In this document: in pieces, positions 4,005 through 46,290 of the stretch
Layout of the letters: every line of letters starts with the position of its first letter
How positions within the stretch are numbered: the stretch's first letter is position 1
NCBI GenBank assembly: GCA_017991475.1
Contig: JAGOQK010000003.1
Location: 848-64,847 of the forward strand
DNA: 64,000 nt
Reading direction: 5' to 3'
DNA from: Minisyncoccota bacterium
GTDB taxonomy: Bacteria > Patescibacteriota > Minisyncoccia > Phycocordibacterales > PALSA-1337
Made by a program: the position numbers and the translations under genes
The notes under the pieces: model-generated
The model's database searches: none
The model's input: only the letters and a program-made list of their open reading frames with translations
What the model was told of the DNA's origin: nothing

Positions 4005-5303
<1,299 letters not shown>

Positions 5304-5343
5304 CTGATAAACAACTCAAACTAGACATTGCCCCTTTCATCCC

Positions 5344-6333
5344 ATGAGTTATACTTATGGGATGAAAACCTTATATACAAAAAAGTTCGTTTATTCGACG
5401 CTCGCACTCGCGCTATTCGCCATAGCACCATCCATAGCATCCGCAGAAGAGACTTGCACCTTCTCCTCTGACCTCTCAGTCGGTTCGATCAGCGAAGAGG
5501 TGCGCTGTCTGCAGAAATACCTCAATGCGAACGGATACATCATCTCCTCATCTGGCCCCGGATCTATCGGTGGAGAGACGTCTCTCTTCAGGGAGAAAAC
5601 TGCGGAGGCCGTGAAGAAATGGCAGACCGCAATGGGTATATATCCTGCCACGGGCACGTTTGGACCCCTATCGCGCGCGACCTATGAGACCAAAAAGAAG
5701 GTCATCGTTCCTTCCACGACAACAACCGTCAACTCTCCCAACACGACCACTTCCGGCTCGACCACGATCATATCCCCTCAGACAACTACCACCTCCACGA
5801 ATACAACCTCGAGCTCGTCATCTTCATCAGATTCGAGTATTAAGAAGCTCCTCAAGAGCGTCTCTGATGCTATCAAGGATGCCGAGGAGAAGATTGATGA
5901 CGCAGAAGATGACGAAGATGCAACTGCTGACGAAATTACCGACATGCGCGAGCAGCTCGACAAAGCCAAGCAAAGACTCGTTGATGCGGTCATGGCATAC
6001 ATTGACGGCGACTTCACCGAAGCAAATTCCCTCGCCAACAAGTCAAAAAACTATACCGAGAATGCTGTCGAAGACATAGACGAAGATGAGAACAAGCAGG
6101 ATGCAGAAGACGCTATTAGTGACGCAAAAGAAGCTATAAGCCAAGCTCGTGAAGACATATCGGAAGCTGAAGATGATGACGAAGATACAGACGAGGCGCG
6201 AGATCTCTATGACGAGGCGCGCGCCAAGTATGATGACGCCCGTGAAGCATTCGACGATGAGGATTATGAGGATGCTCTCGATCTTGCAAAAGAAGCTGAG
6301 GATCTCGCCGAGGAGTCATCAGATGCGCTCTAG
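5344..6333 (+). CDS. Secreted protein: signal peptide, PG_binding_1-like domain, Ser/Thr-rich linker and highly acidic repetitive C-terminus
   Basis: N-terminal signal peptide; the LQKYLNANGY...FREKTAEAVKKWQTAMGIYPATGTFGPLSRATYE block resembles the putative peptidoglycan-binding domain; C-terminus is D/E-rich. Confidence 0.55.
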   Translation: MSYTYGMKTLYTKKFVYSTLALALFAIAPSIASAEETCTFSSDLSVGSISEEVRCLQKYLNANGYIISSSGPGSIGGETSLFREKTAEAVKKWQTAMGIYPATGTFGPLSRATYETKKKVIVPSTTTTVNSPNTTTSGSTTIISPQTTTTSTNTTSSSSSSSDSSIKKLLKSVSDAIKDAEEKIDDAEDDEDATADEITDMREQLDKAKQRLVDAVMAYIDGDFTEANSLANKSKNYTENAVEDIDEDENKQDAEDAISDAKEAISQAREDISEAEDDDEDTDEARDLYDEARAKYDDAREAFDDEDYEDALDLAKEAEDLAEESSDAL

Positions 6334-7246: not shown

Positions 7247-7314
7247 AGGTTATATATTTTCGTATGTCAGGCCAAGATACCATGGCAGGCGAAGAAAGTA
7301 AAGCTTTAATCACT

Positions 7315-7420
7315 GTGAGGAAGACATGTGTGTTTCTGACGGTGCTTCGTTGTATTTGTACACTACACTTTAAAGAACCGTTCTGCGAAGCACCGTCAGA
7401 AACACACATGTCTTCCTCAC
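7315..7420. repeat. Long perfect inverted repeat (35-bp arms, about 36-nt loop) in the divergent rpsT/ruvA intergenic region
   Basis: GTGAGGAAGACATGTGTGTTTCTGACGGTGCTTCG ... CGAAGCACCGTCAGAAACACACATGTCTTCCTCAC, exact complement; shares the CATGTGTGTTTCTGA-like motif with hairpins at 12196, 31209 and 36972. Confidence 0.85.
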
Positions 7421-7445
7421 GGTGCCTTATTTGCTATACTAACCC

Positions 7446-9471: not shown

Positions 9472-9656
9472 AGGTATTCCAGAATTCTGCTGGCCCAGTC
9501 GTAAGGTGATCTTACTGGCTGCATTATATCACTTTTTACACCCAAAGTCAACCTCCTCAAAACCCCTAAAATAAGCCATACTATGGGTGTGATTCTTGGG
9601 CTTTGACTGTCGACTTACGACTACTGACTGACAACTTACAACTGACCACTTCCCCA

Positions 9657-12195: not shown

Positions 12196-12320
12196 GCAGA
12201 CACCGCGCAGGTGGCGCATGTGTTTTCAGCATGTCATGCTTTGGCGGTCATATAAAGTCCGGATCTTCAATCCTAAACATGACATGCTGAAAACACATGC
12301 GCCACCTGCGCGGTGTCTGC
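12196..12320. repeat. Long perfect inverted repeat (43-bp arms, about 39-nt loop), hairpin family member B
   Basis: GCAGACACCGCGCAGGTGGCGCATGTGTTTTCAGCATGTCATG ... CATGACATGCTGAAAACACATGCGCCACCTGCGCGGTGTCTGC. Loop (as reverse complement) begins TTTAGGATTGAA, as in the copies at 31209 and 36972. Confidence 0.9.
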
Positions 12321-14432: not shown

Positions 14433-15170
14433 CTACTTCTTCAAGTCGAGCATCACCCTCTCCACCGCCAACTCTGCATCACAGACCCCTCGATGAGCAT
14501 CATGATACACCGTGATCAGCTTCTCAGTGAGCGTGTCCAACTCTCCTTCACTATAGTTCCCCGCGGCCTTTTTTGCCTTTGAAAATACGAAAGGGCTCAA
14601 GCCCGACTCACCAGCACTCTTTGCATTCGCCGCCAACTTCATGGATTTCACCTGCCAGAAAAGCGTGCCAATGATGCTCTCAGGCTCATTTCCTTGATCG
14701 ACCGCTTCACGATACACCGACCAAGCCTTGAATGGATCTCGAGCTCCGACCGCATCTGCGAGCGCAAAAATATTAAAATCGCCCGACTGTCGACTATCGA
14801 CTGCCGACTTTTGACTATCTCCACACTCCACCATCTTCTCCGCCGACTTCTCTAACGCCTTTTTCAATTCCGCATTGAGCTTCCCTTCCAACACAATGAA
14901 TATATTCGTCGACTCAGCCATCACGGGCACAAATCCTGCAAAAGATTCTTTCGCTTCTGCATTCTCGGTCACACGATCCAGATAGATGATGTATTTATTC
15001 GAAAACAAACCCTGACCACCAATGTGTTCCTCTATGATCGAAGGGTTCCACTGACCCGCCTCAACGCGTACATATGAGGCGTCGGGTCTCTTGGTACGCA
15101 GTGAAGACACCAGAGTTGTCGCTTTGGTGACTGCGGATGCGGTGTCTGTGCCATGGAAGACGTAGAGCAT
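14433..15170 (-). CDS. holA: DNA polymerase III delta subunit (HolA-like)
   Basis: Size, N-terminal MLYVFHGTD (clamp-loader delta start), helical C-terminal domain; lies directly downstream of polA. Confidence 0.65.
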   Translation of the reverse strand: MLYVFHGTDTASAVTKATTLVSSLRTKRPDASYVRVEAGQWNPSIIEEHIGGQGLFSNKYIIYLDRVTENAEAKESFAGFVPVMAESTNIFIVLEGKLNAELKKALEKSAEKMVECGDSQKSAVDSRQSGDFNIFALADAVGARDPFKAWSVYREAVDQGNEPESIIGTLFWQVKSMKLAANAKSAGESGLSPFVFSKAKKAAGNYSEGELDTLTEKLITVYHDAHRGVCDAELAVERVMLDLKK

Positions 15171-15629: not shown

Positions 15630-18281
15630 CTACTTCAACTCCCCCCAACTCTCCCCTATCGCACCATCTGCTCTCAGTGCAATCCCTTTGGTATCTTCAA
15701 GACTCATGACACCCTCCATGATCTTCTCGATCTCCTTCGAGACCGCTTCTGCCTTTTCATTCTTGATCTCATAGACGAGCTCGTCGTGAACTTGGAGCAA
15801 CGCATGAACATCAGCCTCAAGACCATTCTTCTTGATATACTCATCCACTCGTACCATCGCGATCTTGATCACGTCAGCCTCCGTTCCTTGGATCGGTGCA
15901 TTGATAGCCATACGCTCTGCCTGAGCGCGAATATAGGGAATCTTAGACTTGATACCCTCGAAGTATCTGCGACGACCATAGAAGGTCTCTGTGTAGCCAC
16001 GACGCGCAGTCTCAGCCTTCACTTCATTGAGGTAGTTCGCGAGCATTGAGAATGTGTGGAAATAATCATCATAGAATTTCTGCGCAGTCGGACGATCGGT
16101 GCCAATACTCTTCTGGAGCGACGTCACGCCCATACCATAGAGCATGCCGAAGTTGATGGCCTTGGCTTGGCGGCGCATCTCAGAGGTCACCTGATCCTGT
16201 GGGACCTTGAATACAAACGCTGCAACTGATGCATGCACATCCTGTCCTCCTTTGAAGATCTCTATCATCTTCTCGTCGTTCGACAAGAAAGCTGCGATAC
16301 GGAGCTCGATCTGGGAATAGTCGAAGCTGCAGAGCTTGTATCCCCTCTCAGCGATGAATGCATATCTGATGGCTTTGCCGAGCTCGGTCTTGATCGGGAT
16401 ATTCTGGAGATTGGGATTGATAGACGCCATACGACCTGTCGCTGATCCTGCTGATACGAGATGTGAGTGCAGACGATTATTCTTGTCGAGAAGTGGCGGT
16501 ATCGCATCGATATAAGTCGAAAGAAGTTTGGTAAGTTCACGGTACTCGAAGATGAGCTTCACGATCGGGTGAAGGTCGACGAGCTTTTCGAGCTCTGATT
16601 CTTTGGTCGAGCGTGCACCACCCGCAGTTTTCTTCATACCCTTTGCCGTCAATCCGAGCTTGTCAAAAAGTACTTCACCGAGCTGCTTGGGTGAACTGAT
16701 ATTGAATTCCATATCCGCAAGCTTCCAGATCTCCTTTTGCAGTCGATCAGCCTCTGCGTGATACTTTTTGCCGAGATCTTCGAGCAGTATCTTGTCTACC
16801 TTGATACCGCGCTCCTCCATCTTGTCAGTGATCGGAATGAGTGGAAGTTCAATATCTTCATACACCTTTCGCAGATTCCTTTTATCGAGCTCCGCAAATA
16901 CTGTCTCGCGCGCTTTCCCAAACTCATCCGTATTGGCAAAATTGAGCAGATCTTCTAGTGTCGGATTCGTCAGGTTCGAGTTCACCACCCATAGCGCAAG
17001 TAATGTCTCTTTGAGAACCGTCGGATCAATGGCGCTATTAAAAAGAGAGGTTGATGTGGGTGCGGGTGAAGTAGTGGTTGGATTTACATCTGCTGTGCTG
17101 TCATTCCCGCGCAGGCGGGAATCCAGGGTTTTACCAGGAACTTTATTTTTGCTATCCGTCGCCCCTGCGTTCGAGTCAGTGGTATGACCCTGGATTCCCG
17201 CCTGCGCGGGAATGACAGCAGAAGCCGCTCCTACACCCGCCCCTCCACCCACCACCTTCTGCAAGCGCTGCACCAACGTTCGAAATTCGAGTTGCGTCCA
17301 AAGCGTCGTCACCTTCTTGATATCCAATCCTTCCTTGAATGTCTTCTCCGGCAACACAAACTCCACCGGCGCCTTCCTATTGATCGTCGCGAGCATCTTG
17401 CTGAATTCTGCCTCCTCTTTGTTATCTTTCAAGAGCTGCACAATTCTCGGCGTAATCCCTGCATCCAAGAATTTTTTCTCATGGCCTGCCTCGAGCTCCT
17501 TATACATATTCTCGATCGTCCCAAATGTCGTGATGAGAATGGTTGCCGTCTTTTCACCGATCCCTTTCACGCCGATAATATTGTCCGATGGATCTCCACG
17601 AAGTCCCTTGTAGTCAGGAATGAGTTCTGGCCCAAATCCAAATCGCTCACGCACCATATCTTCGTCATAGATGATCGTATCCTTGATTCCCTTTTTCAGA
17701 GTATAAACGCGCACAGTTGTCCCTTTAACCAACTGTAAGGTATCCATATCACCCGAGGCGATAACAATCTCAAGTCGATGGTCAGCAGTCGGCAGTCCTT
17801 GCGACTTTAGTTTCGAGCGGCTCTGACTGTCGACTGCTGACTGTCGACTAATCACTTGTTCTACTATGGTTCCCAACATATCATCTGCTTCATATCCTTC
17901 CTTGCTATACATCGGTATGTCGAGCGCCGTGAATATATCCGGAGACCGATTGATCTGGGTGATGAGGTCATCATCAGTCTCCTTGCGTTGTGCTTTGTAG
18001 CCCTTGTACGCTTCATGGCGGAATGTGAGACCCTTGAGATCATAGCAAGCTACTACATAGTCAGGCTTGAGTTGCTCAATGATGCTGATGAGCATGGTCG
18101 AGAGACCGTAGAGTGCACCCGTAGGCTCGCCACGCGCCGTCGAGAAGTCAGGCAGGGCGTGGTAGGCACGATGAAGTATTGCGTGAGTATCGAGGAGTAC
18201 CAGGCGCTTGGTTTCTACCTTCTCGGCTTTTGGGGATTTTGCAGGCTTTTTTGTGGCTGGTGACATAGGGGCATTGTACAC
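15630..18281 (-). CDS. polA: DNA polymerase I (5'-3' exonuclease + 3'-5' exonuclease-like + polymerase domains) carrying an in-frame palindromic-repeat insertion in the inter-domain linker
   Basis: 883 aa. 5'-nuclease N-terminus (LVLLDTHAILHRAYHA), polymerase motifs (DYSQIELRIAAFLS, motif B RRQAKAINFGMLYG, motif C LQVHDELVYE). Linker contains ...AVIPAQAGIQ...SRLRGNDS... encoded by the hairpin repeat at 17097-17219. Confidence 0.95.
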   Translation of the reverse strand: MYNAPMSPATKKPAKSPKAEKVETKRLVLLDTHAILHRAYHALPDFSTARGEPTGALYGLSTMLISIIEQLKPDYVVACYDLKGLTFRHEAYKGYKAQRKETDDDLITQINRSPDIFTALDIPMYSKEGYEADDMLGTIVEQVISRQSAVDSQSRSKLKSQGLPTADHRLEIVIASGDMDTLQLVKGTTVRVYTLKKGIKDTIIYDEDMVRERFGFGPELIPDYKGLRGDPSDNIIGVKGIGEKTATILITTFGTIENMYKELEAGHEKKFLDAGITPRIVQLLKDNKEEAEFSKMLATINRKAPVEFVLPEKTFKEGLDIKKVTTLWTQLEFRTLVQRLQKVVGGGAGVGAASAVIPAQAGIQGHTTDSNAGATDSKNKVPGKTLDSRLRGNDSTADVNPTTTSPAPTSTSLFNSAIDPTVLKETLLALWVVNSNLTNPTLEDLLNFANTDEFGKARETVFAELDKRNLRKVYEDIELPLIPITDKMEERGIKVDKILLEDLGKKYHAEADRLQKEIWKLADMEFNISSPKQLGEVLFDKLGLTAKGMKKTAGGARSTKESELEKLVDLHPIVKLIFEYRELTKLLSTYIDAIPPLLDKNNRLHSHLVSAGSATGRMASINPNLQNIPIKTELGKAIRYAFIAERGYKLCSFDYSQIELRIAAFLSNDEKMIEIFKGGQDVHASVAAFVFKVPQDQVTSEMRRQAKAINFGMLYGMGVTSLQKSIGTDRPTAQKFYDDYFHTFSMLANYLNEVKAETARRGYTETFYGRRRYFEGIKSKIPYIRAQAERMAINAPIQGTEADVIKIAMVRVDEYIKKNGLEADVHALLQVHDELVYEIKNEKAEAVSKEIEKIMEGVMSLEDTKGIALRADGAIGESWGELK
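17097..17219. repeat. 123-bp palindromic element (33-bp perfect arms with a nested TTCCCGCGCAGGCGGGAA mini-palindrome) embedded in-frame in polA
   Basis: GCTGTCATTCCCGCGCAGGCGGGAATCCAGGGT ... ACCCTGGATTCCCGCCTGCGCGGGAATGACAGC. Length is a multiple of 3 and the polA ORF reads through it. Confidence 0.85.
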
Positions 18282-18319
18282 CAGAATGAGGTGCCTTCGT
18301 AGAGGTTACTCCAACTGCC

Positions 18320-18850
18320 TTATTCAGCTTTCTTCACCATCTCCATATCAATGATAATCGCTCCGCTTTTTAGTCGACCAGATTCCTGCGCCGTTCTTTT
18401 TCCTGTATCGGTAAAACCCAATTTTTTATAAAAGTTTATTGCGTTTTCTGTATATTCTGCAACCTGAACATATGTATCTTTTCTAGGGTCAAGAAATTCC
18501 ATCGCCTTATTCCAAAGTTTCGTTCCAATTCCCTTGTTCTGAAATTCGGGCAAAATGTACAGGGTTCTTAAATGATTATTATTCTCATTTCTAATAACTG
18601 TACAAGCACCGACGACCATATTCCCTCTTTTTGCAACCAGTCTTTTTTTATTTTCTGGTAAATTTCTTATTAATTCCTTTAAGTTATCAATCTTTTCATC
18701 AGAAAAATCATCCTTATAGCTATCTTCAATATCATCTATTGTCACTCCCTTCTCTTTATTCGGGTATGTCGAAAGCCATGCTTTATAGAATACATTTGTA
18801 ATTCCTAACGCATCATCAGGAACAGCATCAAGAATATTGATATCTTCCAT
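18320..18850 (-). CDS. GNAT-family N-acetyltransferase
   Basis: Acetyl-CoA binding motif region (VAKRGNMVVGACTV...QNKGIGTKLWNKAMEF). Confidence 0.8.
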   Translation of the reverse strand: MEDINILDAVPDDALGITNVFYKAWLSTYPNKEKGVTIDDIEDSYKDDFSDEKIDNLKELIRNLPENKKRLVAKRGNMVVGACTVIRNENNNHLRTLYILPEFQNKGIGTKLWNKAMEFLDPRKDTYVQVAEYTENAINFYKKLGFTDTGKRTAQESGRLKSGAIIIDMEMVKKAE

Positions 18851-18862
18851 ATTATTTAAAAA

Positions 18863-19408
18863 CTAATACTCCACCACCCTCTCATTCTCGCCCTCCCCGA
18901 CACTAAAGTTAATCTGAGAATACCCCTCAAGTTTCTCCACCGCCCCCTTCACATTTTCCGGCCACTCAATGAGGATGAGGTTATCTGGATCAGCAGCATA
19001 CTTCGCAAAATTGATCGCTTCCAATTCCTGGGCACGCTCGAGACGATATGCGTCGATGTGCACGAGACGCTTCCACGGAAAATTCGCTGCTCCGTTCTCT
19101 GTCAGATCCGCTACCACCTTCGTCGGATCAATATCATATATCTTCATAATCACAAATGTCGGACTCGTCACATCCTCTGTGATACCGAGATCCTTCGCCA
19201 CACATTTCGTAAAAGCAGTCTTCCCTGCACCGAGGTGACCTGAGAGACCGATAATTGTTGCTGTGTCTGTGTCATTCCCGCGAAGGCGAATTAGCAAATT
19301 CGTGCCTGGCCGGGAATCCATGCGATTCTTATTTTCAGAAATACCTCGCAGCCATTCATGGGCAATTTGGGCTGTTTCTTCTAGAGAATGTGATACTTGC
19401 TTAATCAT
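18863..19408 (-). CDS. tsaE: tRNA threonylcarbamoyladenosine biosynthesis ATPase TsaE (YjeE) with an in-frame repeat-derived insertion near the N-terminus
   Basis: P-loop LSGHLGAGKTAFTKCVAKDLG typical of TsaE; the preceding NKNRMDSRPGTNLLIRLRGNDTDT segment is encoded by the GTCATTCCCGCG...CCGGGAATCC repeat. Confidence 0.8.
   Translation of the reverse strand: MIKQVSHSLEETAQIAHEWLRGISENKNRMDSRPGTNLLIRLRGNDTDTATIIGLSGHLGAGKTAFTKCVAKDLGITEDVTSPTFVIMKIYDIDPTKVVADLTENGAANFPWKRLVHIDAYRLERAQELEAINFAKYAADPDNLILIEWPENVKGAVEKLEGYSQINFSVGEGENERVVEY
19271..19320. repeat. Palindromic element of the same family as 17097-17219 (GTCATTCCCGCGAAGGCG ... GGCCGGGAATCC) inside tsaE
   Basis: Shares the CATTCCCGCG / CGGGAATCC arms and encodes the same RLRGND peptide motif found in polA. 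Confidence 0.65.
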
Positions 19409-19458
19409 GAGGTAATACTACACGCCTTATGCTTATGCCTCAAGGCAGGAATGAAAAA

Positions 19459-19497
19459 ACCGCATCCCTTCCCTGTTGGAAAAGATGCGGTTACTGA
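19459..19497 (-). terminator. Rho-independent terminator (AACCGCATC...GATGCGGTT followed by TTTTTTC on the minus strand)
   Basis: 9-bp stem plus T-run, located just after the stop of the 19582..20160 gene. Confidence 0.65.
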
Positions 19498-19581
19498 TGC
19501 AAGACTACTTACCTGTGCCCACGACCGACTGCGGTGGTGGAGGTGTATCTCGCGGAATTGTTTACGGCATTTGAAGAACTG

Positions 19582-20160
19582 TTAACGACGACGTCCGCCA
19601 TGATTGAACATTTCTCCAACTGAAGGTACCGAACCGTACGGGTTGTTGTTGTAGTTCTGCCCATAGGATCGATGCCCTCCGAATGCATTCCGATACCCCG
19701 CCTGATTGGCGTGGATGCGGGCACGCTCGCCATACGCCGAATCGTTCACCCAATACGTTCCCGTGTGGTAGTAACTCGGATATGAGCTGATGCTCACCCC
19801 GGCTGACGCAACGAACGGGAGGTTGACGATGCCGACTCTGCTGGGAGTGTGGTACTGCCGCTCAACATATACCGGTTGCGGCGCAACAACAACTTCTCGA
19901 ATTACGACTGGCTGGATTGCGATCGTCTCACGAATGAAATTTGTCGTGATACTCGGTGTAGCGGAAGCGACTACGACATTGCTCCGCGGCGGAATCTCGG
20001 ATATCGGCGTCCACTTGATGACGAACTGTTTAGCCACTCGATTGGTGACGCCATTTGTGCACACCGCGGGTGACGAGCACCCGCACTCACACGCCCGAGC
20101 TTCAACAGCCCAGAATGTTGCGGCAACTGCCGCGATGATACTGACAATGATCTGTTTCAT
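19582..20160 (-). CDS. Secreted hypothetical protein (signal peptide, Cys-rich N-terminus, Tyr/Asn/Gly-rich C-terminus)
   Basis: Clear signal peptide MKQIIVSIIAAVAATFWAVEARA; own terminator; the overlapping plus-strand ORF 19790..20437 is rejected. Confidence 0.5.
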   Translation of the reverse strand: MKQIIVSIIAAVAATFWAVEARACECGCSSPAVCTNGVTNRVAKQFVIKWTPISEIPPRSNVVVASATPSITTNFIRETIAIQPVVIREVVVAPQPVYVERQYHTPSRVGIVNLPFVASAGVSISSYPSYYHTGTYWVNDSAYGERARIHANQAGYRNAFGGHRSYGQNYNNNPYGSVPSVGEMFNHGGRRR

Positions 20161-28442: not shown

Positions 28443-29549
28443 TTACCTATTCATCGGCATCACGAGGTAGAGAAATGTTTGATCTCCTGAAACTGGCTTG
28501 ATAACAACAGGACGATTGAGACCGTTGAGCTGAAGGGATACACTGTCTGCATCAATCGATTGGAATCCATCGATAAGATATCGATAATTGAAATTAATCT
28601 CCATCTTATCACCTGTTAGAGCTGCATCCACGAGTGTTTGGTTCTCTCCAATATCGCTATTTTTAGTCTGTATTTCAAACATTTTTCCTTTTGGATCGAT
28701 GGTGAGATGAACTTGATTGAACTTATCAGAGAAAATGTTTGATATTTTCAAGGAATTGAGAATGTCTTGTTTGAGTGCAACTACTTCCGTTGTGAATGTT
28801 TTAGGAATAATCTGTCTATAATCAGGAAAAACTCCATCTATTACGCGTGATACGATATACACACCATCATGCTCAAATGAAATAAGATTTTTGTTTGCCG
28901 TAACAGTTACCGAACCATTCATGCTTTGAAGGATTCTAATGATATCTTGGGTATTCTTGAATGGAATCAGAGTATCAACAACTTTTGATCCTCCGTCGCT
29001 TTTAACTTTCTTCTCAGCAAGACGAAATGAGTCCGTTGCTGCAAATGTGAGGTATTCCCCATCCTTATATACATAAATGCTTGAAAGCTCTGGTTTAACG
29101 CTCGATATTGAAGCACTATATGCCACAGCGCTCAATCCTTGAACAAACACTTCTGGTGATATTGAATACTCTTGACCATCTGAAACCTTCGGTATTGGGG
29201 GAAAATCCTCAGCAGGAAGGGTTTTTATTACTCCTTTGGACTTATTGGTCTTTATATGGGCATTACCAGATATAACCTCAATTGATATAACCTGATTTTG
29301 ATCATTAGCCTGAGATATAAATGAAGAAAGAGTATGTGCAGGTACTGCAATAGTACCTATTCCATCTGATTTTACTGGAACAGCAACCTCTACACCCACA
29401 TCGAGATTTGTGGCTTTGAATAGTGCAGTATTCTTATCAACTTCAATAAGAATACATGAGAGTACAGGTAATGTCTGGTGCTTTCCTGCTACCCTCTCTA
29501 TGAGTTGGATCGTTTCTCTCAGTTTTTTGAATCCTATGTCTATCTTCAT
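28443..29549 (-). CDS. dnaN: DNA polymerase III beta sliding clamp
   Basis: 368 aa three-domain clamp; N-terminus MKIDIGFKKLRETIQLIERVAGKHQTLPVLSCILIE; located next to dnaA. Confidence 0.9.
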   Translation of the reverse strand: MKIDIGFKKLRETIQLIERVAGKHQTLPVLSCILIEVDKNTALFKATNLDVGVEVAVPVKSDGIGTIAVPAHTLSSFISQANDQNQVISIEVISGNAHIKTNKSKGVIKTLPAEDFPPIPKVSDGQEYSISPEVFVQGLSAVAYSASISSVKPELSSIYVYKDGEYLTFAATDSFRLAEKKVKSDGGSKVVDTLIPFKNTQDIIRILQSMNGSVTVTANKNLISFEHDGVYIVSRVIDGVFPDYRQIIPKTFTTEVVALKQDILNSLKISNIFSDKFNQVHLTIDPKGKMFEIQTKNSDIGENQTLVDAALTGDKMEINFNYRYLIDGFQSIDADSVSLQLNGLNRPVVIKPVSGDQTFLYLVMPMNR

Positions 29550-29776
29550 AGTAGTTTTTAATTTAATTTATCACAGTATGTTATTAGTCCTGTGGGTATG
29601 TGAATAAAGTTATTTAATGGCTCTAAATATGGATACTATAGGAATTATTTATTACACAGCATGTTGAAGAATTTTTTCTCTATATCCCTTTGAATAACTT
29701 CTGTGTATTACTCACCTATTTACCCACACACTTTTCCTATCCTATATACAACCTATTCACATACTTTTCCCCAGTT
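29550..29776. other. Candidate oriC: AT-rich dnaN-dnaA intergenic region with several near-consensus DnaA boxes
   Basis: TGTGGGTAT (29591), TGTGAATAA (29599), TTACCCACA (29719) and TATTCACAT (about 29755) are each within 1-2 mismatches of TTATCCACA; region is AT-rich and sits between dnaN and dnaA. Confidence 0.4.
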
Positions 29777-31123
29777 TTATAACATCGTACGAACCTGGGT
29801 AATTTCTTGGGAAAGCAACTGATCAGTCTTCATCTCTTCACGCATCTTTTCATATGAGTGAATAACAGTAGTGTGATCTCTTCCTCCAAGCTTTTCTCCA
29901 ATTGAGGGGAATGATATGCCAAAATCCTCTCTCAATATATACATAACCACCTGGCGTGGTCTCACCACCTCCTTGCGTCTCGTTTTGTTGTAGATACTAT
30001 CCTCGTCGATGTTGTAGAATTCCGATACAATCTTCACTACATCCTTCACAGACATCATTTTCTTCGGTTTTACGTTGTTTTTGAGTATATTTTTGATTTC
30101 ATTGATACTCAATTCCCTGTTTTTTAGTTGAGTTTGGCATGCAATCACGTTGATAATACCCTCTATTTCGCGGATATTATCCTCAATAGATGATGCTATG
30201 TGGTCGATAACCTCATCAGAGAGAGTGATATTGTGTGGTGCACACTTGCTACGTACGATCATGGTACGAGATTCCTGGTCGGGCTCAGGTATGTCTATGA
30301 TCATTCCTGCATTGAATCTACCCTTGAGGCGATCTTCAAGTCCAGGAATTACATTTGGGTGTTTATCTGACGAGAATACGAGCTGACGAGCGGAATCATA
30401 GAATGTATTGAAAAAGTGGAAGAGTTCTTCTTGGAACTTCTCTTTACCCGCGAAGAATTGTACATCGTCCATGATGATAACATCATATTTTCTGTACTTA
30501 TCTTTGAATAGCTGCACCTTTGCTTCTTGAATAGCGGCAAAAAGCTCAGAACCGAATCTTTCTGAGGTCAGGTAAAACACCTTTTTATCTGGAAATAGCT
30601 TCTTGATCTGGTTCCCTACAGCTTGGATCATGTGTGTCTTACCGCGACCCGTCTGTCCATATATGAACAATGGGTTGTATGACTGCCCAGGAGCCTTCAC
30701 AACACTCTGAGAGGCTGCGTGAGCGACTTCGTTGAAGGGTCCAACCACAAGAGACTCAAATGTATATCGTGGATTGAGGTTATCCTCCTTGTTGATATAG
30801 AAATCTTGTAGGGGCATGGCTAGTGTAGGCATGTTTAGAGCATCCTTTTTGGCTTGATGACCTCCCTTTCCCTCTTCTTTTATGATCACATACTCGAGGG
30901 CACGGACACGCTCGTTCATTTGGCGCAAAATACGCAAGATTGAGTTGTGAAACTTCTTTTGGAGCCATTCATGGGTAAATGAGTTTGGAACTCCGAGGTA
31001 GACTACCCCCTCATCTTCACGGAGTATCTTGATATCTTTGAACCAGGTCGAGAAGTTTGCTTGAGAGACGGCAGTCTCTATCTCTATGAGCGCAGTTTGC
31101 CACATTTTCGTAAAGTCATTCAT
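29777..31123 (-). CDS. dnaA: Chromosomal replication initiator DnaA
   Basis: AAA+ motifs (GQTGRGKTHMIQAVGN, IIMDDVQF), C-terminal DNA-binding domain (YHNITLSDEV..., GGRDHTTVIHSYEKM). Confidence 0.95.
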   Translation of the reverse strand: MNDFTKMWQTALIEIETAVSQANFSTWFKDIKILREDEGVVYLGVPNSFTHEWLQKKFHNSILRILRQMNERVRALEYVIIKEEGKGGHQAKKDALNMPTLAMPLQDFYINKEDNLNPRYTFESLVVGPFNEVAHAASQSVVKAPGQSYNPLFIYGQTGRGKTHMIQAVGNQIKKLFPDKKVFYLTSERFGSELFAAIQEAKVQLFKDKYRKYDVIIMDDVQFFAGKEKFQEELFHFFNTFYDSARQLVFSSDKHPNVIPGLEDRLKGRFNAGMIIDIPEPDQESRTMIVRSKCAPHNITLSDEVIDHIASSIEDNIREIEGIINVIACQTQLKNRELSINEIKNILKNNVKPKKMMSVKDVVKIVSEFYNIDEDSIYNKTRRKEVVRPRQVVMYILREDFGISFPSIGEKLGGRDHTTVIHSYEKMREEMKTDQLLSQEITQVRTML

Positions 31124-31208: not shown

Positions 31209-31328
31209 ACTGAAACACAGTGGTGTGCGTGTGTTTTCTCAGTGTCATGTTTATGATTGAGCACTAAGCTTAAAAAGACTGATAAAGCATGACACTGAGA
31301 AAACACACGCACACCACTGTGTTTCAGT
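31209..31328. repeat. Long perfect inverted repeat (41-bp arms, 38-nt loop), hairpin family member C, in the dnaA-rpmH intergenic region
   Basis: ACTGAAACACAGTGGTGTGCGTGTGTTTTCTCAGTGTCATG ... CATGACACTGAGAAAACACACGCACACCACTGTGTTTCAGT; loop TTTATGATTGAGCACTAAGC... Confidence 0.9.
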
Positions 31329-36971: not shown

Positions 36972-37093
36972 GAGCCCTCATGTACGCGGTACGCATGTTT
37001 TGTGCATGTCATGTTTAGGATTGAACACTAGAAATAATGTTACCTACTAAGCATGACATGCACAAAACATGCGTACCGCGTACATGAGGGCTC
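36972..37093. repeat. Long perfect inverted repeat (42-bp arms, 38-nt loop), hairpin family member D, inside the T4SS-like gene block between the VirB4-like gene and the next gene
   Basis: GAGCCCTCATGTACGCGGTACGCATGTTTTGTGCATGTCATG ... CATGACATGCACAAAACATGCGTACCGCGTACATGAGGGCTC; loop TTTAGGATTGAACACTAGAAATAATGTTACCTACTAAG. Confidence 0.9.
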
Positions 37094-37104
37094 GTACCTC
37101 AATA

Positions 37105-38916
37105 TTACCCAGCCTGTTCCAGATCCTTCTTCGCCTGTTGAATACTCAAAACTTGAGCAGGATTGGTCGTGATGATCTGATCCTCGGTATATGATGCAAC
37201 GATCTTGATGGCGACGTGCTTGAGACCCACGAAGAATATACCCTCCCCCACATCTGATTCGAGCAAGAGGTACTTCTCTTCATCAGTCAGGTTAAATGTT
37301 TTCTGGATATGGTCGATGACTGTAGGAGACTGTTTGAGGAGTATTTGGATCGATGAGTTGGTTACGATAGGCAATCCATATGGTGAATTCAAGAAATCAT
37401 CCACGTCCTGGGTGATGGTAGCAAGTCCAAGGAAGTACTTGCGGCCGCGCTTGGCAAGGCTGAACAAGAATGAAGCTGTATCTTCAGACTTCATCATCCA
37501 CCACGCCTCGTCGATGACGAGCAGGCGCTTCTTGAGATTCTTGCGGATAGCATTCCAGATATAGTGAGTGACGATATACATAGCCACTGGCTTGAGTTCA
37601 TCTTCCATATCACGGAGCGAGAACACGGCAAATTTCTTGTTGATGTCGATGTTGGATGGCCTGTTGATGAAGCCTGACCATGTTCCTTTGGTGTACTTTG
37701 AGAGCCTCTGCACAAGCGATTCGCCGCCCTCCATTCCTGCAAGCACCAGCTCGAAGTCGGATAGGAGCGGTGGCTCAACGGTGCGGAAATCAGCCTCGGG
37801 CGTGATGTCTTTCAAGGCATAGGTCTCAGTGATGGCGCGATCGATGATAGCGTCTTCTTCTTGTGTGAGGCCTCCGAGCATGATGCGGAATAGTCCGACG
37901 AGGTTGATGATGTTCGAACGGAGTACATCAGCGCCAGATTCGTCCTCGCGTGGTATCGGGAGATCAAATGGGTTGATGTGGTGCTCAGAGTTGAGTGAGA
38001 TATTGAAGTACTTCCCTCCCGTAGCTTCTGCCATGTATTCGTACTCCTTCTCTGGATCGATGACGATAACATCCACATCGAACATGAGTGTTCGGAGGAT
38101 CTCAAGCTTAGTGTTGTAGGACTTTCCAGCACCGGCCACTGCGAATGTCACTGAGTTGTAGTTTTCAAGCGAGTAGCGATCAAAGAGAACAAGTGATGAG
38201 TTGTGACGATTGATACCGTAGAGGATACCCTTGTCTGAGGTGAGATCAAATGAAACGAATGGGAAAAGTGACGAGAGTGGCGAAGAGTTGAGCTTGGAGT
38301 GCACTGCGAGCTGGTCATCCGCGATAGGAATAACAGATTTGAATCCCTGCTCCTGCTGGAAGAGAGCTGGCTTCACATAGATGAGTTTGGATTCGAGGAT
38401 AGACTTGATCTCTGATTCGAGCTTATCGAGCTCGCCTTCGTTATCAGCGAATAGGGTGATATAAACACCGACGTCGAAGAGATGTTCCTGTGCCTGCATG
38501 AGTTGGTCGCGGAGCTGCTCGAGATCTTGGTATGCGGTATCGAGCGCTGGATCACGGACAAGGCCTTTCTCTTCCCTGTGTGAAATCTGACTTTGAACCT
38601 CAGCAACCTTCTTCTGGAAATGCCTCAAAATTTTTGCAGTATCGACGGGGTGTATGAATATCGAAATATTGAATATTTTGTCGAGATTGATGATCGGTGC
38701 AAACCAGCTCTCGTCAAGGAAGCGAGGGTATGAGATCACGAAAAGTGTGCGACCGACTTTCTCACCAAGATTGATCTCCTTTGGGCTTACCTTGAGTGCA
38801 GACGGCGAAATGACATCCTTGAGTTCTAGGACACCAGCCTGATAGATCTCTTCTGGCAGGATAGAGACAATAGGAGATGATTCTTTTTTGCCGAATAGTT
38901 TGTTGAGGAATGACAT
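37105..38916 (-). CDS. virB4: VirB4/TraC/CagE-family type IV secretion ATPase (Gram-positive-type, about 600 aa)
   Basis: Walker A SVTFAVAGAGKSYNTK, VIDPEKEYEYMAEATGGKYFNI, Walker B LLVIDEAWWMM, C-terminal LATITQDVDDF. Confidence 0.8.
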   Translation of the reverse strand: MSFLNKLFGKKESSPIVSILPEEIYQAGVLELKDVISPSALKVSPKEINLGEKVGRTLFVISYPRFLDESWFAPIINLDKIFNISIFIHPVDTAKILRHFQKKVAEVQSQISHREEKGLVRDPALDTAYQDLEQLRDQLMQAQEHLFDVGVYITLFADNEGELDKLESEIKSILESKLIYVKPALFQQEQGFKSVIPIADDQLAVHSKLNSSPLSSLFPFVSFDLTSDKGILYGINRHNSSLVLFDRYSLENYNSVTFAVAGAGKSYNTKLEILRTLMFDVDVIVIDPEKEYEYMAEATGGKYFNISLNSEHHINPFDLPIPREDESGADVLRSNIINLVGLFRIMLGGLTQEEDAIIDRAITETYALKDITPEADFRTVEPPLLSDFELVLAGMEGGESLVQRLSKYTKGTWSGFINRPSNIDINKKFAVFSLRDMEDELKPVAMYIVTHYIWNAIRKNLKKRLLVIDEAWWMMKSEDTASFLFSLAKRGRKYFLGLATITQDVDDFLNSPYGLPIVTNSSIQILLKQSPTVIDHIQKTFNLTDEEKYLLLESDVGEGIFFVGLKHVAIKIVASYTEDQIITTNPAQVLSIQQAKKDLEQAG

Positions 38917-38920
38917 AGTC

Positions 38921-39562
38921 TTATGTTATCTGTATCGGCTTCTCCGTTTCGCCTGGGTTAAACAGTTTATAGAACAATTCTACCACCTCTTCTGTCCCAA
39001 GCTCCGCTGCGCGGACACCACAACGTACGAGCCCTTGCTCTACCACGGCGACGCGCTGTTCGAGCTGGCTGCGGTATTCTTGGAACTTCGCATCAGTACT
39101 TTCCGCAGTCGCCTTACCTGCTCCCTTCCCCGGGAACATGCCTGCCAGAGGATTCTTGCCCCCACTCACGATCGGTGGATCGTACGGTATGACGACGAAG
39201 AAACTCTTGGACATGATGTTTGTGCTCTCGACGAAGGTTTTGATAAATTCGATGTACTCACGAACTTGGATCTTCATGAGCTCGGTGATCTGTTCCTTGT
39301 AGCGATCTTCGAGGAGGGCTATATACGGTCTGATGTCGAGTTTTTTTGATTGAACGAATATCTGTATAGAAAAATCGAGCGAGTTCACAAAATTCTGGAA
39401 TTGCATGAGGATAGAGCTCTGTTCATCCTGTGATTTGAGGGCGAAGTTGAGAGATGAGGCGAGCACGACCGCGCGCATGCCGCCATTTTTGAGAATAACG
39501 ACCCCGTCCCGAATCTCTTGAATCGGTATGAATCCTTGGGTTGTCGATTGTTTAGGAGCCAT
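38921..39562 (-). CDS. Hypothetical protein resembling the N-terminal domain of Gram-positive VirB4-like ATPases; a possible split VirB4 N-domain or accessory protein
   Basis: FIPIQEIRDGVVILKNGGMRAVVLASSLNFALKSQDEQSSILMQFQNFVNSL resembles N-termini of Tn916 Orf16 / PrgJ-type proteins as recalled; separated from virB4 by only 4 nt. Confidence 0.4.
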   Translation of the reverse strand: MAPKQSTTQGFIPIQEIRDGVVILKNGGMRAVVLASSLNFALKSQDEQSSILMQFQNFVNSLDFSIQIFVQSKKLDIRPYIALLEDRYKEQITELMKIQVREYIEFIKTFVESTNIMSKSFFVVIPYDPPIVSGGKNPLAGMFPGKGAGKATAESTDAKFQEYRSQLEQRVAVVEQGLVRCGVRAAELGTEEVVELFYKLFNPGETEKPIQIT

Positions 39563-39993
39563 TACTTTTGGTTTTTATTTGAATACATGCTCTCCTTGAT
39601 ATCGAGGCTCCAACTCAAGTCCTTGAGTTTGCTATCGGAAATTTTAGGAACCATAATCGAGGCGTAATTTTTGATATCAGCGACAGGAGACTTCTCGGTT
39701 TGTGCGACCTTGTCCTCCTTCTTCCAGATATAGAGCTTGCCCCCGAGCCAGTATTTGAATGCAGCTTCGACAATAGCGACGAATGGCTTGTTATTGATCC
39801 TGTAGAATGCGAGTGCCGCAGATATTGCCATGACGATAATGATAGGAACGATCGCCAACGTGAAGCTGCCCAAGAGCACATACAGCAAAAATGATAAGCC
39901 TCCCCCACCAGCGAGATATATGAACTGTTTCAGGGTGAGAGGACCAAAGATTTTGTCCTCAACCTCGATGAATTGGGGAACTTGATAGCGCAT
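39562..39993 (-). CDS. PrgI/VirB3-like small membrane protein
   Basis: 143 aa, N-terminal IEVEDKIFGPLTLKQFIYLAGGGG then two TM helices; sits immediately upstream of the VirB4-like genes as PrgI-family proteins do. Confidence 0.55.
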   Translation of the reverse strand: MRYQVPQFIEVEDKIFGPLTLKQFIYLAGGGGLSFLLYVLLGSFTLAIVPIIIVMAISAALAFYRINNKPFVAIVEAAFKYWLGGKLYIWKKEDKVAQTEKSPVADIKNYASIMVPKISDSKLKDLSWSLDIKESMYSNKNQK

Positions 39994-40049
39994 TACAGTA
40001 TATTATAACCCAATTACGCACATTTATATATGTGCAAATAGAATTCGTT

Positions 40050-40781
40050 TTAACTTACCATTTCCCTATAGGGGTCAGGTCCAGCTTTCTTGGGTTGTGG
40101 AGGTGGTGTCTTCGGGGTTTCTGGGGCTGTAGGTGTTTGTATGGGGCTTTGAGTAGTTCTTTGGGGAGCTGATGGTCGGGTCGGCACTGACTGTACAGGC
40201 GTCTCCAAGGGCGTTTCCTCGACTACAGGCAAATTGCTTGGAGCAGGCGCCTCATGATGAGGTTTGGGTGCGAGTTGCCCGACTGAATTCTGGAGAAGAT
40301 GATCAACGAGCGGCTCAGTGTGATTGTCTGAAGACGATTTTGAGTAGGCACCCTTCGGAACAGGTGGATTCTCTAGGTGTTCAAGTATCTGACTTCTATC
40401 TGCTGCACTTACCTTGGATTCAGTTGCAACCCTCTCTTTCTCAATACTGAAACCACCGACCTTTTCAATGTTTGCAACTGAGGCAGCATTCTCTTCTACT
40501 GTAGTTTGCGCCTGGATTTGTTCCTTGAGCGTCTGGAATACAGCCGCATTGACCTCGGCGACGATCTTCTCCGCGAGTCCCCGGTCGATCTCGAGGCGTT
40601 GCATGATGTGCTTGATGAAGTCTCCCGACTCGCTGACGCCATTGAGTATGTCGCGTATCTCAGCATCAAGTTCCCCTACTTGGTCGATGAGGAGGCCGAA
40701 TTTCGCGCCGATAGCTTCCGAACGGTCGTAGAGTTCGGCTGAGTCAGCGAGCTTTTTGAATTCTGGGGGTGTTTGGTGCAT
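40050..40781 (-). CDS. Hypothetical protein with Pro/Thr-rich C-terminal tail
   Basis: ORF only; in the T4SS-like block. Confidence 0.45.
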   Translation of the reverse strand: MHQTPPEFKKLADSAELYDRSEAIGAKFGLLIDQVGELDAEIRDILNGVSESGDFIKHIMQRLEIDRGLAEKIVAEVNAAVFQTLKEQIQAQTTVEENAASVANIEKVGGFSIEKERVATESKVSAADRSQILEHLENPPVPKGAYSKSSSDNHTEPLVDHLLQNSVGQLAPKPHHEAPAPSNLPVVEETPLETPVQSVPTRPSAPQRTTQSPIQTPTAPETPKTPPPQPKKAGPDPYREMVS

Positions 40782-40795
40782 GTGAGTAATAATAA

Positions 40796-42712
40796 TTAAG
40801 CAGGGTTATATGTTACTCCGTTTAAGGTTATACTTGCCTTGAGCCAATCACCATGGTTCTTAGGTTTACTCATCCAACCGAAGGCGCTGTGCTCACTGCC
40901 ACCAGAAGTCGTTTTCCAATCGAGAATACTTCTTGCAATAGCATCTTTTGTTTCCTTAGATACTTTACTGTCACCAATTTTCTTAAGACGATCGATGGAA
41001 AGATGTTCAAGTAGCCCTGGGTTTGCCAGCAATGATTCATCTTCGACAATACTGTCAATATCCATATCCTTTACCATCTGCTTGACGACCTCCTTGTCGC
41101 CCGTAGTCACTGCGCTTGAGAACGCATCCTTACGCGCGGTCTTGAGTGTGCTTATATCCTCAGGTTTGAAATCTTCCGATTTCTCAATAGCTTCAATGTC
41201 TGATTTTTGGAGATGCTTCATAACCTGAGGATTTTTCAAGACATCCTTCCCAAGAGCAAGCTTCTCGTCTTTGCTCATAAGTTTAATAATAGCCTTGTAT
41301 TCATCAGATGATTTAGAGTCGGAAGCGATAAGATTTTTGATTTGAGTTACCCTATCCATCTGTGTTTGCTTCTTTGCAACATCCTTCAGCTCCTTTCTGG
41401 TCTCATCATAACTTCGTGGACCCCCAAACTTACTCTTTGCAACTTGTCCTATTGTTGCAGAGCGAATATCTCTACCGAGCAGACTGTTGCCGATGCGAGT
41501 ATTGGAGAGGTATTTATCTGTTTTTGATGCCGCCATTCCAAAAGTTTTGCCACCTGCCCAACCGCTAACACCCTTCCAGATTGCTCCCGCCCCTACACCC
41601 TCTGCCCACTTTGGCATCATTGCTCCCACACTGATAGCCGCAAGAAGTGGCGCGTTGAGCATGATAATAACAATCGAGGCATTGATACCGAGGATCATGT
41701 AGTTCGCCCACCAGTACTCGCCTGCCGACTGATTCGTGGCAAATCCGGCTTGGAACAAGTTGCTTGAGGTCAGGATGCTCAACGCGAAATACATGAGCAA
41801 CAAATACACTGGCATGAAGAGGAGCTGACTCTTGTAGGTATCAGTCCATTTATTGGCGTATGTTTTTAGGTCAGGCACTGCGAATGACGCGAACCATATC
41901 GGGGAGAATCCAAGCAAGAGAAGCAACACAACGAAGCGTACGATGAAGGCAAGCGCTGCGAGGAAGAAGCTTGCTGCAGCGGTGAGCATGACGACGATGC
42001 CAAATACACCACCAAGGATAATCTGTGTGGATGCGTGAAAAGTTCCTGGTGTTCCCCCTGCCCCCGACGGATTGAGGGCCGCAGTTTTGGCATCATAGAA
42101 ATTGCTGATCTTGAGCGATTTCATGAATATGTCGGAGAGTCCGCCGTCTGCAAATCGTGTTTCGAGATTCGCACCATTCCCCACAAGCTGATCATAGTTG
42201 AGGTTACTTGCAGGCGCAATAGTGTTGTAGAGCTGCATCGATACTACATTTGAGACGTCGATACCGAGTCCTGCAGCGAAGAAACTGAAGTTTATGAGCA
42301 CTCCAGCGACTACGACCGTCTTGATGAGGTTTCCTGCGCTCGGTCCGGGGACGCCGATCGGTGCCAAGATCATCTTGAGTGCTGCGAAGACGAGGGTGAA
42401 TATGAGGAACATGCCGGATATGTCTCGTATCGATTTCCAAACCGCGTATATCGCTGGAGTACCTTCAAGGAACTCTTTGATGTTGAGTGTCAGGTTTATC
42501 GACATATTGAGCAGCGATCCGGCAAGCGCGAGGATCCAGGCGGATATGGTCAGAAGGTTGTTGACGATTTCGGCGAAGAATCCAGTGACGAAGTCATGGA
42601 AGGTATATCCGAAGAGTGGTGCGTCTGCTGCCTGCGCCACATGCCCAAATCCTCCCACGAGTATCGTGATGAGGATGAGAGTTGCTGTTATGTGAGGCAA
42701 GTAGCGTTTCAT
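40796..42712 (-). CDS. VirB6/TrbL-like polytopic inner-membrane protein with C-terminal charged cytoplasmic extension
   Basis: Signal peptide plus about 8 TM helices across the first 400 aa, then a long K/D/E-rich tail; size and topology match T4SS VirB6-like channel proteins; adjacent to PrgI and VirB4. Confidence 0.55.
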   Translation of the reverse strand: MKRYLPHITATLILITILVGGFGHVAQAADAPLFGYTFHDFVTGFFAEIVNNLLTISAWILALAGSLLNMSINLTLNIKEFLEGTPAIYAVWKSIRDISGMFLIFTLVFAALKMILAPIGVPGPSAGNLIKTVVVAGVLINFSFFAAGLGIDVSNVVSMQLYNTIAPASNLNYDQLVGNGANLETRFADGGLSDIFMKSLKISNFYDAKTAALNPSGAGGTPGTFHASTQIILGGVFGIVVMLTAAASFFLAALAFIVRFVVLLLLLGFSPIWFASFAVPDLKTYANKWTDTYKSQLLFMPVYLLLMYFALSILTSSNLFQAGFATNQSAGEYWWANYMILGINASIVIIMLNAPLLAAISVGAMMPKWAEGVGAGAIWKGVSGWAGGKTFGMAASKTDKYLSNTRIGNSLLGRDIRSATIGQVAKSKFGGPRSYDETRKELKDVAKKQTQMDRVTQIKNLIASDSKSSDEYKAIIKLMSKDEKLALGKDVLKNPQVMKHLQKSDIEAIEKSEDFKPEDISTLKTARKDAFSSAVTTGDKEVVKQMVKDMDIDSIVEDESLLANPGLLEHLSIDRLKKIGDSKVSKETKDAIARSILDWKTTSGGSEHSAFGWMSKPKNHGDWLKASITLNGVTYNPA

Positions 42713-42733
42713 GAATCTATAGGGGTTGAATGA

Positions 42734-44344: not shown

Positions 44345-44349
44345 AGTTT

Positions 44350-45273
44350 TTATTGTAATTGTGAAAAGAGTGATCCAGGCTCTGTTGACGCAAAGGCGAT
44401 TCCCGCTAAGGCGAAGTATGACTTTATGCTCTTGAGCGAAGTTAGAAGATTGCTTTGGATGGCAGTATATGCGCTTACTGATACCATCGTCTGCATCGGA
44501 TCATGTTCGACGCCCCGAATATCACGAGAAATTTTTGCCATACCAGATACTGCATTTAGAAGATCTACATGATAGGGAGCGAGAGGTTGTGGGACAGGCG
44601 TACCCTTGAGCTGGGTCGCTATCGTCTCGTATGAAGATACTACAGGGTCAATCTGCATGAGAAGCTTCATGTCCCCCTTTTCCAATGCGTCATTTGCGAT
44701 GACGGCTGGATCGGCGTCGACTCCGTATGTCGAAAATGTAAATCCGACAGCATTTCCATACTCCTTGACGTTGGTCGCGGTAGCTTCTGCGATGATTGAA
44801 ATATCAGCCACGGTAAATGCCTTGGGTTGTTCTGCTGCGCGCGCAGCGTTGTATATCGATTGATTCAATGTGTCTGTAACGAACGGCTGGTTCTCGATGA
44901 GATTGCTCTGCTTGAGCTGTATATAGCGAGCGAAGAAATCCCTGCCGAATTGATCAGTGAGGGTCAAATCTTCTAACGATGTTGATGGTACGGCAGTGCG
45001 GGTAGGTGCGGCTGGCTTCTCAAGAAAACTCAACCTCCAATCAGTCGTAGATGCTGAGGTCTCGTTTGTTTTTTGCGTAGAAACAACATCGATGGAACTC
45101 GCTGGGATCGATCCGGACGATGCTTTCTCGGTGGGTTGACCTGACTTTGCGTATATAAATACGCCTCCAACGGCCAGGACGCACAGTATCGCAATCAAGG
45201 CAGTCTGTTTGTGAGGGTAATAGCTCGCCATATCACTACAAGTATAGCAGAAAATCAATAGATTCTCGGCCAT
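44350..45273 (-). CDS. Membrane-anchored hypothetical protein
   Basis: Single N-terminal TM (ALIAILCVLAVGGVFIY), extracellular remainder. Confidence 0.45.
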   Translation of the reverse strand: MAENLLIFCYTCSDMASYYPHKQTALIAILCVLAVGGVFIYAKSGQPTEKASSGSIPASSIDVVSTQKTNETSASTTDWRLSFLEKPAAPTRTAVPSTSLEDLTLTDQFGRDFFARYIQLKQSNLIENQPFVTDTLNQSIYNAARAAEQPKAFTVADISIIAEATATNVKEYGNAVGFTFSTYGVDADPAVIANDALEKGDMKLLMQIDPVVSSYETIATQLKGTPVPQPLAPYHVDLLNAVSGMAKISRDIRGVEHDPMQTMVSVSAYTAIQSNLLTSLKSIKSYFALAGIAFASTEPGSLFSQLQ

Positions 45274-45297
45274 ATCTGTGGACAGGCAGCATTATTT

Positions 45298-46269: not shown

Positions 46270-46290
46270 ACTCTAATATTCTATCATGAA

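Follow-up and report, generated by a model that had tools for sequence, protein, structure and literature searches.

The polA gene, encoding DNA polymerase I, in a 64,000-nucleotide stretch of a Minisyncoccota bacterium genome (GenBank assembly GCA_017991475.1, contig JAGOQK010000003.1, positions 848 to 64,847 of the forward strand; this whole stretch is referred to as the window) carries a palindrome at positions 17096..17220 that is translated as part of the protein. Judged by its sequence, the palindrome is an inverted pair, with TGTC tags facing outward, of a hairpin repeat that is already known as dRS3 or the Neisseria Transformation Sequence (NTS), the Ssn-related motif (SRM), the CGTC-1 repetitive extragenic palindromic (REP) sequence, and Rickettsia palindromic element (RPE) 6. 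We consider it probable that a pair of this known repeat was mobilized in trans and persists in polA as a tolerated in-frame passenger. The evidence comes from the structure of the palindrome, from its match to published repeat definitions, and from polA genes of related organisms of the Candidate Phyla Radiation (CPR).

The palindrome within polA

The polA gene (15630..18281, minus strand) was identified from the list of open reading frames (ORFs) and from Pfam as an 883 amino acid (aa) ORF, called at 878 aa by NCBI, and the protein is 100% identical to NCBI protein KBC33_01730 of a Candidatus Pacebacteria metagenome-assembled genome (MAG). Pfam domains PF02739, PF01367 and PF00476 were found in PolA, with the 5'-3' exonuclease at aa 26-313 and DNA_pol_A at aa 500-881, and no Pfam match to a 3'-5' exonuclease domain. 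The palindrome, an inverted dimer of two hairpin units with a spacer, lies between the Pfam 5_3_exonuc (aa 218-313) and DNA_pol_A domains. An inverted-repeat search gave arms of 41 nt each (17096-17136 and 17180-17220) that are 95% complementary and separated by a gap of 43 nt, the outer 34 bp being perfectly paired. Within each arm is a 28-nt unit, TGTC-ATTCCCGC-GCAG-GCGGGAAT-CCAG, composed of a TGTC tag, an 8-bp stem (ATTCCCGC/GCGGGAAT), a GCAG loop and a CCAG tail. Unit A is at 17099..17126 on the plus strand and the identical unit B is inverted at 17190..17217 (minus strand); between them is a 63-nt spacer of unique sequence (17127..17189), the ends of which lengthen the palindrome by a few bases. 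The 28-nt unit occurs twice in the window versus 0 times in 100 shuffles. As single-stranded DNA (ssDNA) the palindrome is predicted to form a single hairpin of -57.3 kcal/mol (z = -14), and the predicted fold of the RNA is -90.7 kcal/mol (z = -13).

The polA frame is uninterrupted across the palindrome. From GTC to GAC (17100-17216) there are 117 nt or 39 codons, specifying residues V356-D394 within the peptide AVIPAQAGIQ...LDSRLRGNDS; on the coding (minus) strand unit B reads AVIPAQAGIQ, the spacer GHTTDSNAGATDSKNKVPGKT, and unit A LDSRLRGND. An earlier reading of this DNA, made from the sequence only, had described an in-frame palindrome in the polA linker and given it as a 123-bp element (17097-17219). 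The in-frame palindrome is borne out by the continuous ORF and the perfect 34-bp arms. The exact inserted length is not fixed, because no empty site was found, and the proposed 123 bp is compatible with the possible lengths of 117, 120 or 123 nt. An assembly artefact can be ruled out, since the same element is present in the independent assemblies L122, L123, L124 and L035. A search of 5.8 billion proteins with the 44-aa insert peptide returned 29 candidates with one 35-aa match and was uninformative on host proteins.

Identity and distribution of the hairpin repeat

The arm agrees at 27 of 28 positions with the NTS consensus CGTCATTCCCGCGMAVGCGGGAATCYRG. The NTS was defined by this consensus, together with the degenerate SRM, in the 2025 paper on Ssn nucleases (Nat Commun 2025;16:2388, PMC11893778), and when the published SRM pattern was run on the window the only matches were 17099-17126 (+) and 17190-17217 (-), compared with a mean of 0.29 in shuffled sequence. 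The core of the arm is identical to the 21-mer ATTCCCGCGCAGGCGGGAATC, the Neisseria REP master sequence, which is the commonest Neisseria meningitidis REP sequence with 241 copies in N. meningitidis 2594 (Bertels and Rainey). In CGTC-1 REPs, as defined by Di Nocera et al. 2013 (PMC3733652), the tag is CGTC or TGTC, the stem has 8 bp and begins with AT, the loop has 4 nt, and the unit closes with a CCA tail; most are inverted dimers with 20-100 bp spacers, and the authors equate them with Neisseria dRS3 and R. conorii RPE-6. The polA units have the TGTC tag at 17099-17102 and, inverted, at 17214-17217, and they share the AT-starting 8-bp stem, the 4-nt loop and the CCA tail. The sequence-only reading had compared the palindrome with the Rickettsia elements, and the resemblance is closer than was supposed; the putative relationship to RPE-6 is taken from the published equation of CGTC-1 with dRS3 and RPE-6. 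The window contains one dimer and one relic of the repeat, while a related Paceibacteria contig (L124) contains 5 perfect units in 22 kb.

To survey the distribution of the repeat, one genome per species was searched for exact matches to the 25-nt core GTCATTCCCGCGNNNGCGGGAATCC, and the counts from these genomes and from IMG/VR viral contigs are both lower bounds. The core was present in at least 120 stretches of the species-representative genomes, from more than 20 phyla. Hosts among the matches listed include Alpha-, Beta-, Gamma- and Deltaproteobacteria, Bacteroidota, Chloroflexota, Planctomycetota, Nitrospirota, Acidobacteriota, Gemmatimonadota, Spirochaetota, Elusimicrobiota, Cloacimonadota and Vampirovibrionales, and also Saccharibacteria, Paceibacteria, Parcubacteria and one Nanoarchaeota MAG. 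At least 120 viral or prophage contigs in IMG/VR (L128-L247) carry the exact core, which suggests a possible route between phyla.

The 120 genome loci contained 223 units, of which 151 had the tag CGTC and 64 had TGTC, with the tail CCA in 181. Pairs of units were arranged with tags outward in 55 cases, versus 8 inward and 4 direct, and 53 of the 55 tags-outward pairs spanned 63-155 bp (the outliers were 26 and 200 bp). The polA element, with tags outward and 117 bp in length, is a typical family member. Across 129 distinct units, compensatory double changes in the 8-bp stem numbered 77, where 13.9 were expected and none of 500 shuffles gave more than 23; therefore the hairpin itself is conserved, beyond plain sequence.

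An Rfam scan of 16500-19800 gave a weak match to FtrB (Francisella sRNA B, RF02748) of 23.7 bits, compared with a gathering score of 66. The RF02748 consensus includes the same hairpin, CAUUCCCGCGUAGGCGGGAAUC, which suggests that the described Francisella small RNA FtrB includes a copy of the repeat. The other Rfam matches were sub-threshold chance hits to microRNA hairpin models, and membership of the palindrome in an RNA family was rejected.

Comparison with orthologous polA genes

In an alignment of 22 PolA sequences the inter-domain linker was hypervariable. Three orthologues with 84-81% identity to PolA (P0003, P0004 and P0005) lack the element-derived peptides, and the DNA encoding P0004 (L121) has no hairpin unit. 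A vertically inherited linker is ruled out by these close orthologues without the segment, and the claim of the sequence-only reading that the palindrome is an insertion is upheld. In the orthologue P0002 (L122, 86% identity) the same linker site is occupied by a diverged version of the pair, in which the stem has undergone a compensatory change to CCCGAC/GTCGGG. L124 (P0023) has a perfect 90-bp pair within the polA linker; a second pair on this contig, also perfect, lies in the gap between polA and holA, and the 3' end of a Mur ligase gene carries one lone unit. In L123 (P0007) a 90-bp pair with compensatory stem changes is located in the 5'-3' exonuclease loop. The occurrence of the same DNA element elsewhere in polA, in the linker and, diverged, at the same site fits the description of the palindrome as one of a mobile type. 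A linker peptide of this kind in the absence of the DNA palindrome would have pointed to a conserved protein segment; the three orthologues with the peptide whose DNA was checked all have hairpin DNA, the others being represented by protein only.

The element peptides were found in 8 of the best 120 PolA relatives, in addition to the degenerate copy in P0002, and sat at one of two hot spots: the linker or, at aa 135-165, the loop of the 5'-3' exonuclease domain. The frame used in these proteins is invariably VIPAxAGIQ / DSRLRGND; the frames SFPRRRES, WIPACAGMT and HSRAGGNP were searched for in the same 120 relatives and 0 were found. A single unit from TGTC to CCA spans 9 codons (27 nt). No direct repeat or target-site duplication was seen around six CPR copies.

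Repeat-like peptides of other kinds fill both PolA hot spots in other lineages (P0030, P0006, P0012, P0013, P0017 and P0019). For example, PLFQRGTLQRDSLVKGGE occurs twice in P0030, and SSQASRN...ATPRKDGFASD is present in five orthologues; these peptides look like products of further in-frame repeat families. The polA gene of the window has a second, unrelated palindrome in the 5'-3' exonuclease loop (17773-17849), with 25-nt arms that are 88% complementary; it consists of a 7-nt periodic unit, GACTGYC, and encodes the peptide QSAVDSQSRSKLKSQGLPTADHRLE. An analogous palindrome is present at the same loop in L122 (7653-7722). Similar GACTGYC heptamer arrays occur in holA (14785-14815, peptide KSAVDSRQS) and at 9605-9628, and arrays of this type gave 8 matches in the window versus 0.15 expected.

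Probable tolerance of the insert and copies in other genes

An AlphaFold2 model built with the 22-sequence alignment gave pLDDT values of 23-29 over aa 346-415, the segment containing the insert, which is flanked by predicted helices at aa 334-344 and 420-433. In the second hot spot, aa 157-166 had a pLDDT below 50. Of the six possible readings of the unit, one contains a stop codon (GFPPARE*) and two are rich in W/C/M or in R, while the frame used gives small, polar residues. Survival of the repeat in an essential gene would then be explained by the combination of a disordered linker, a length that is a multiple of three, and a benign pair of frames, VIPAQAGIQ / DSRLRGND, that would avoid W/C/M-rich peptides and the stop codon. 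The added PolA peptide is most likely a tolerated by-product and not a functional module.

The second copy in the window lies in tsaE (18863..19408, minus strand; Pfam PF02367), the gene for the ATPase of N6-threonylcarbamoyladenosine (t6A) biosynthesis. It is a degenerate single unit (19270..19322, plus strand) consisting of TGTCATTCCCGCGAAGGCG...CGGGAATCCA split by approximately 25 nt, and it fails the published SRM pattern. In frame it encodes RMDSRPGTNLLIRLRGNDTD, immediately before the Walker A motif, where TsaE has approximately 17 residues more than two orthologues. The sequence-only reading had proposed a related element in tsaE. This is borne out only in part: the tsaE copy shares TGTCATTCCCGCGAAGGCG and CGGGAATCCA and adds residues, but it is a split and decayed single unit, not a second palindrome.

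In-frame copies were also found in two unrelated ORFs, one tgt-like on a Parcubacteria contig and one DNA methylase-like on a Nanoarchaeota contig. The latter (L076, MAG contig JAHIPG010000372.1) has a tags-inward pair of units at 1510-1583 that reads MDSCFRRND...VIPAQAGIQ in frame, within a 584-aa ORF with the DNA methyltransferase-like motif FFLGSGTT. If this contig is truly archaeal, then the repeat spans domains.

Proposed mobilization and alternative explanations

Scanning for a GIY-YIG motif, and then searching with phmmer and hmmsearch, identified seven single-domain GIY-YIG ORFs in approximately 2 Mb of motif-bearing loci, located in genomes (L034 and L083) and on viral contigs (L130, L159, L208, L244 and L245). 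Four of the seven were checked with Pfam and all four match PF01541. The motif adjoins all seven ORFs, and in five of them (six if a degenerate unit is counted) it is present on both sides with tags outward. These loci reproduce the NTS-ssnA-NTS cassette of the Ssn paper, and the polA pair has the same tags-outward geometry minus the gene. The mobilizing partner would most likely be an Ssn-type GIY-YIG enzyme, and less likely a REP-associated tyrosine transposase (RAYT). Under the mechanism that we propose, the repeat would be non-autonomous and would spread within genomes, the pair being a miniature of the insertion sequence (IS)-like NTS-ssnA-NTS cassette in which a short spacer has replaced the small GIY-YIG nuclease gene. 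The unit would fold as a hairpin in ssDNA, a hairpin-specific single-strand nuclease supplied in trans would recognize it, and copies of it would arise at new sites with no duplication of the target.

Several observations weigh against this explanation. A hidden Markov model built from the seven GIY-YIG homologues gave no match in the 64-kb window, the part of this genome that was covered, nor in the fetched CPR loci. The activities demonstrated for SsnA are cleavage of ssDNA close to the motif and the limiting of transformation by motif-bearing DNA, not transposition (PMC11893778), and the single pair and relic in the window give no evidence of an active population in this genome. No empty-site allele was found, and the metagenome collection, having neither the empty nor the occupied junction, was uninformative. 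Finally, no similarity was detected between the spacers of different copies across the fetched loci, even within L124; with spacers that all differ, the two halves of a pair may move separately, and two single-unit insertions would be possible.

That second possibility, in which two separate 27-nt units were inserted near each other in an existing linker and the spacer descends from the original polA gene, draws on the frame-preserving length of the unit, on the unique spacer in every copy, and on the existence of single in-frame units in the exonuclease loop of P0105 and at the Mur ligase 3' end in L124. We nevertheless rate it as quite improbable: the complementarity extends beyond the unit into the ends of the spacer to give 41-nt arms, tags-outward pairs outnumber the other arrangements by 55 to 12, and no similarity could be detected between the spacer and the linkers that the closest orthologues have. 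We also regard it as unlikely that the element is a strict REPIN, in which a RAYT present as a single copy, an HUH tyrosine transposase of the IS200/IS605-like kind, would copy the REP doublet. The polA pair resembles the REPINs of Bertels and Rainey in having two inverted REPs and a spacer that together give one long hairpin, in agreement with the REPIN definition, and these authors assigned ATTCCCGCGCAGGCGGGAATC, as its REP, to a REPIN population for which the Group 2 RAYT NMAA_0235 would act; in addition, the absence of target-site duplications agrees with HUH chemistry. However, phmmer with the E. coli RayT, a single query that distant RAYTs could escape, gave 0 matches in the window or in the approximately 2 Mb of motif-bearing loci, versus the seven motif-flanked Ssn-type genes, and no RAYT was seen near any copy examined. 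The tag is CGTC/TGTC and not the GTAG of RAYT-associated REPs, no dedicated transposase is known for CGTC REPs according to Di Nocera et al. (PMC3733652), and the spacers are not conserved between copies. By their description, REPINs also lie outside genes and are passed on vertically, whereas the hairpin motif seen here is common to many phyla.

It is very unlikely, in our assessment, that selection has favored the segment, whether for a function that it adds to PolA or as an RNA or DNA hairpin that regulates polA expression or recombination. Such a role would be in line with the very stable predicted mRNA hairpin (-90.7 kcal/mol), with the reported excess of REPs in replication and repair genes, polA included (Di Nocera et al., PMC3733652), and with the filling of the same linker spot in several Paceibacteria. 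Yet the same peptides appear in unrelated proteins (TsaE and the tgt-like and methylase-like ORFs), the segment is missing from the closest orthologues and has a prediction of disorder, and older copies are decaying (L122, P0018 and P0079). A classical miniature inverted-repeat transposable element, bounded by terminal inverted repeats and dependent on a DDE transposase for its movement, has next to no probability. The polA element is small, with inverted ends and no coding capacity of its own, as such elements are, but each arm is a self-contained hairpin kept by covariation, there is no transposase in the window, and the lack of a target-site duplication at any of the six CPR copies led us to reject this candidate. 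No transposase-like gene was found in the window by Pfam analysis of 20 ORFs and by synteny, which covered most of the others; the 20 ORFs scanned included DnaA, DnaN, YidC, UvrD, PNPase and an Xer-type recombinase, among others. Clustering of ORFs of at least 90 aa gave no recurrent neighbor gene near the motif. Mobilization in trans of a known repeat pair remains our preferred explanation.

Other repeats and genes of the window

A separate family of palindromes of approximately 120 bp is intergenic, at 12196-12320, 31209-31328, 36972-37093 and perhaps 7311-7424. Its members share the inner motif GCATGTGTTTTC...CATGTCATG, and one is directly upstream of dnaA. L125, a Logan assembly made independently from the same organism, terminates approximately at the 36972-37093 palindrome. 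The dnaN and dnaA genes are adjacent (28443-31123) and the cumulative GC skew has its minimum at 34-36 kb; the window probably spans the replication origin region. The region 37105-48600, which corresponds to L125, contains a type IV secretion or conjugation-like cluster with PrgI, TraC-like and TraG-type P-loop ATPase genes and several large ORFs without a Pfam match. In L122, the contig of the closest relative, the T2SSE ATPase gene and tsaE are separated by an inserted rve-type (DDE) integrase or IS gene (4855-5916), which neither the window nor L121 has.

Relation to known repeats and implications

The CGTC-1 REPs are the closest described relatives of the polA element. REP dimers within genes were reported to add 20-30 residues to the products of DNA polymerase I, UvrABCD, RecBCD and DnaE genes (PMC3733652). 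The survey in that paper covered five phyla and no CPR or DPANN genome, and described copies are for the most part intergenic, whereas both copies in the window are inside genes (polA and tsaE). For comparison, 2% of NTS in N. meningitidis are inside genes (PMC11893778). The element shares with the NTS the consensus, the SRM pattern and a predicted ssDNA hairpin. It differs in that the window has no ssnA gene, the cd10448-type single-domain GIY-YIG gene that the motif typically flanks, and in that the limiting of transformation was demonstrated in Neisseria. As with RPE-1 and other Rickettsia palindromic elements, a palindrome absent from orthologues has been inserted in frame into coding genes, including essential ones, adding a surface or linker peptide that does not destroy the protein. 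RPE-1 itself is longer and unrelated in sequence, and membership of the CGTC super-family is limited to RPE-6 and RPE-4 (PMC3733652).

The sequence-only reading had seen in this palindrome a CPR example of a mobile element that creates new protein segments. The CPR example holds, but the element belongs to a described and very widespread family, and REPs in polA of other bacteria were known (PMC3733652). The hairpin family and in-frame REP dimers in DNA polymerase I genes are thus already known, and the polA element reveals no new mechanism. Full-text literature searches returned no paper tying REPs, REPINs or RPEs to CPR or Patescibacteria. What appears to be new is the Patescibacteria host, the two PolA hot spots across Paceibacteria, the use of a single frame, and the location of both window copies within genes.

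These results extend to Patescibacteria a known hairpin family that was recently linked to Ssn single-strand nucleases. They also show the repeat persisting within essential genes where there is little room between genes, placed at disordered loops and read in one frame. For annotation, this means that VIPAxAGIQ and DSRLRGND in CPR proteins are marks of repeat insertion and not conserved protein motifs. A further reading, which we consider less likely than not, is that in the ultra-small and gene-dense genomes of the CPR, and perhaps of DPANN archaea, the repeat resides mainly within essential genes and not between them, and has colonized the two disordered spots of PolA again and again in one preferred frame. 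If this is true, the repeat would be a regular source of linker peptides in CPR proteins, and Ssn-type cleavage sites within replication and repair genes could modulate recombination at those loci.

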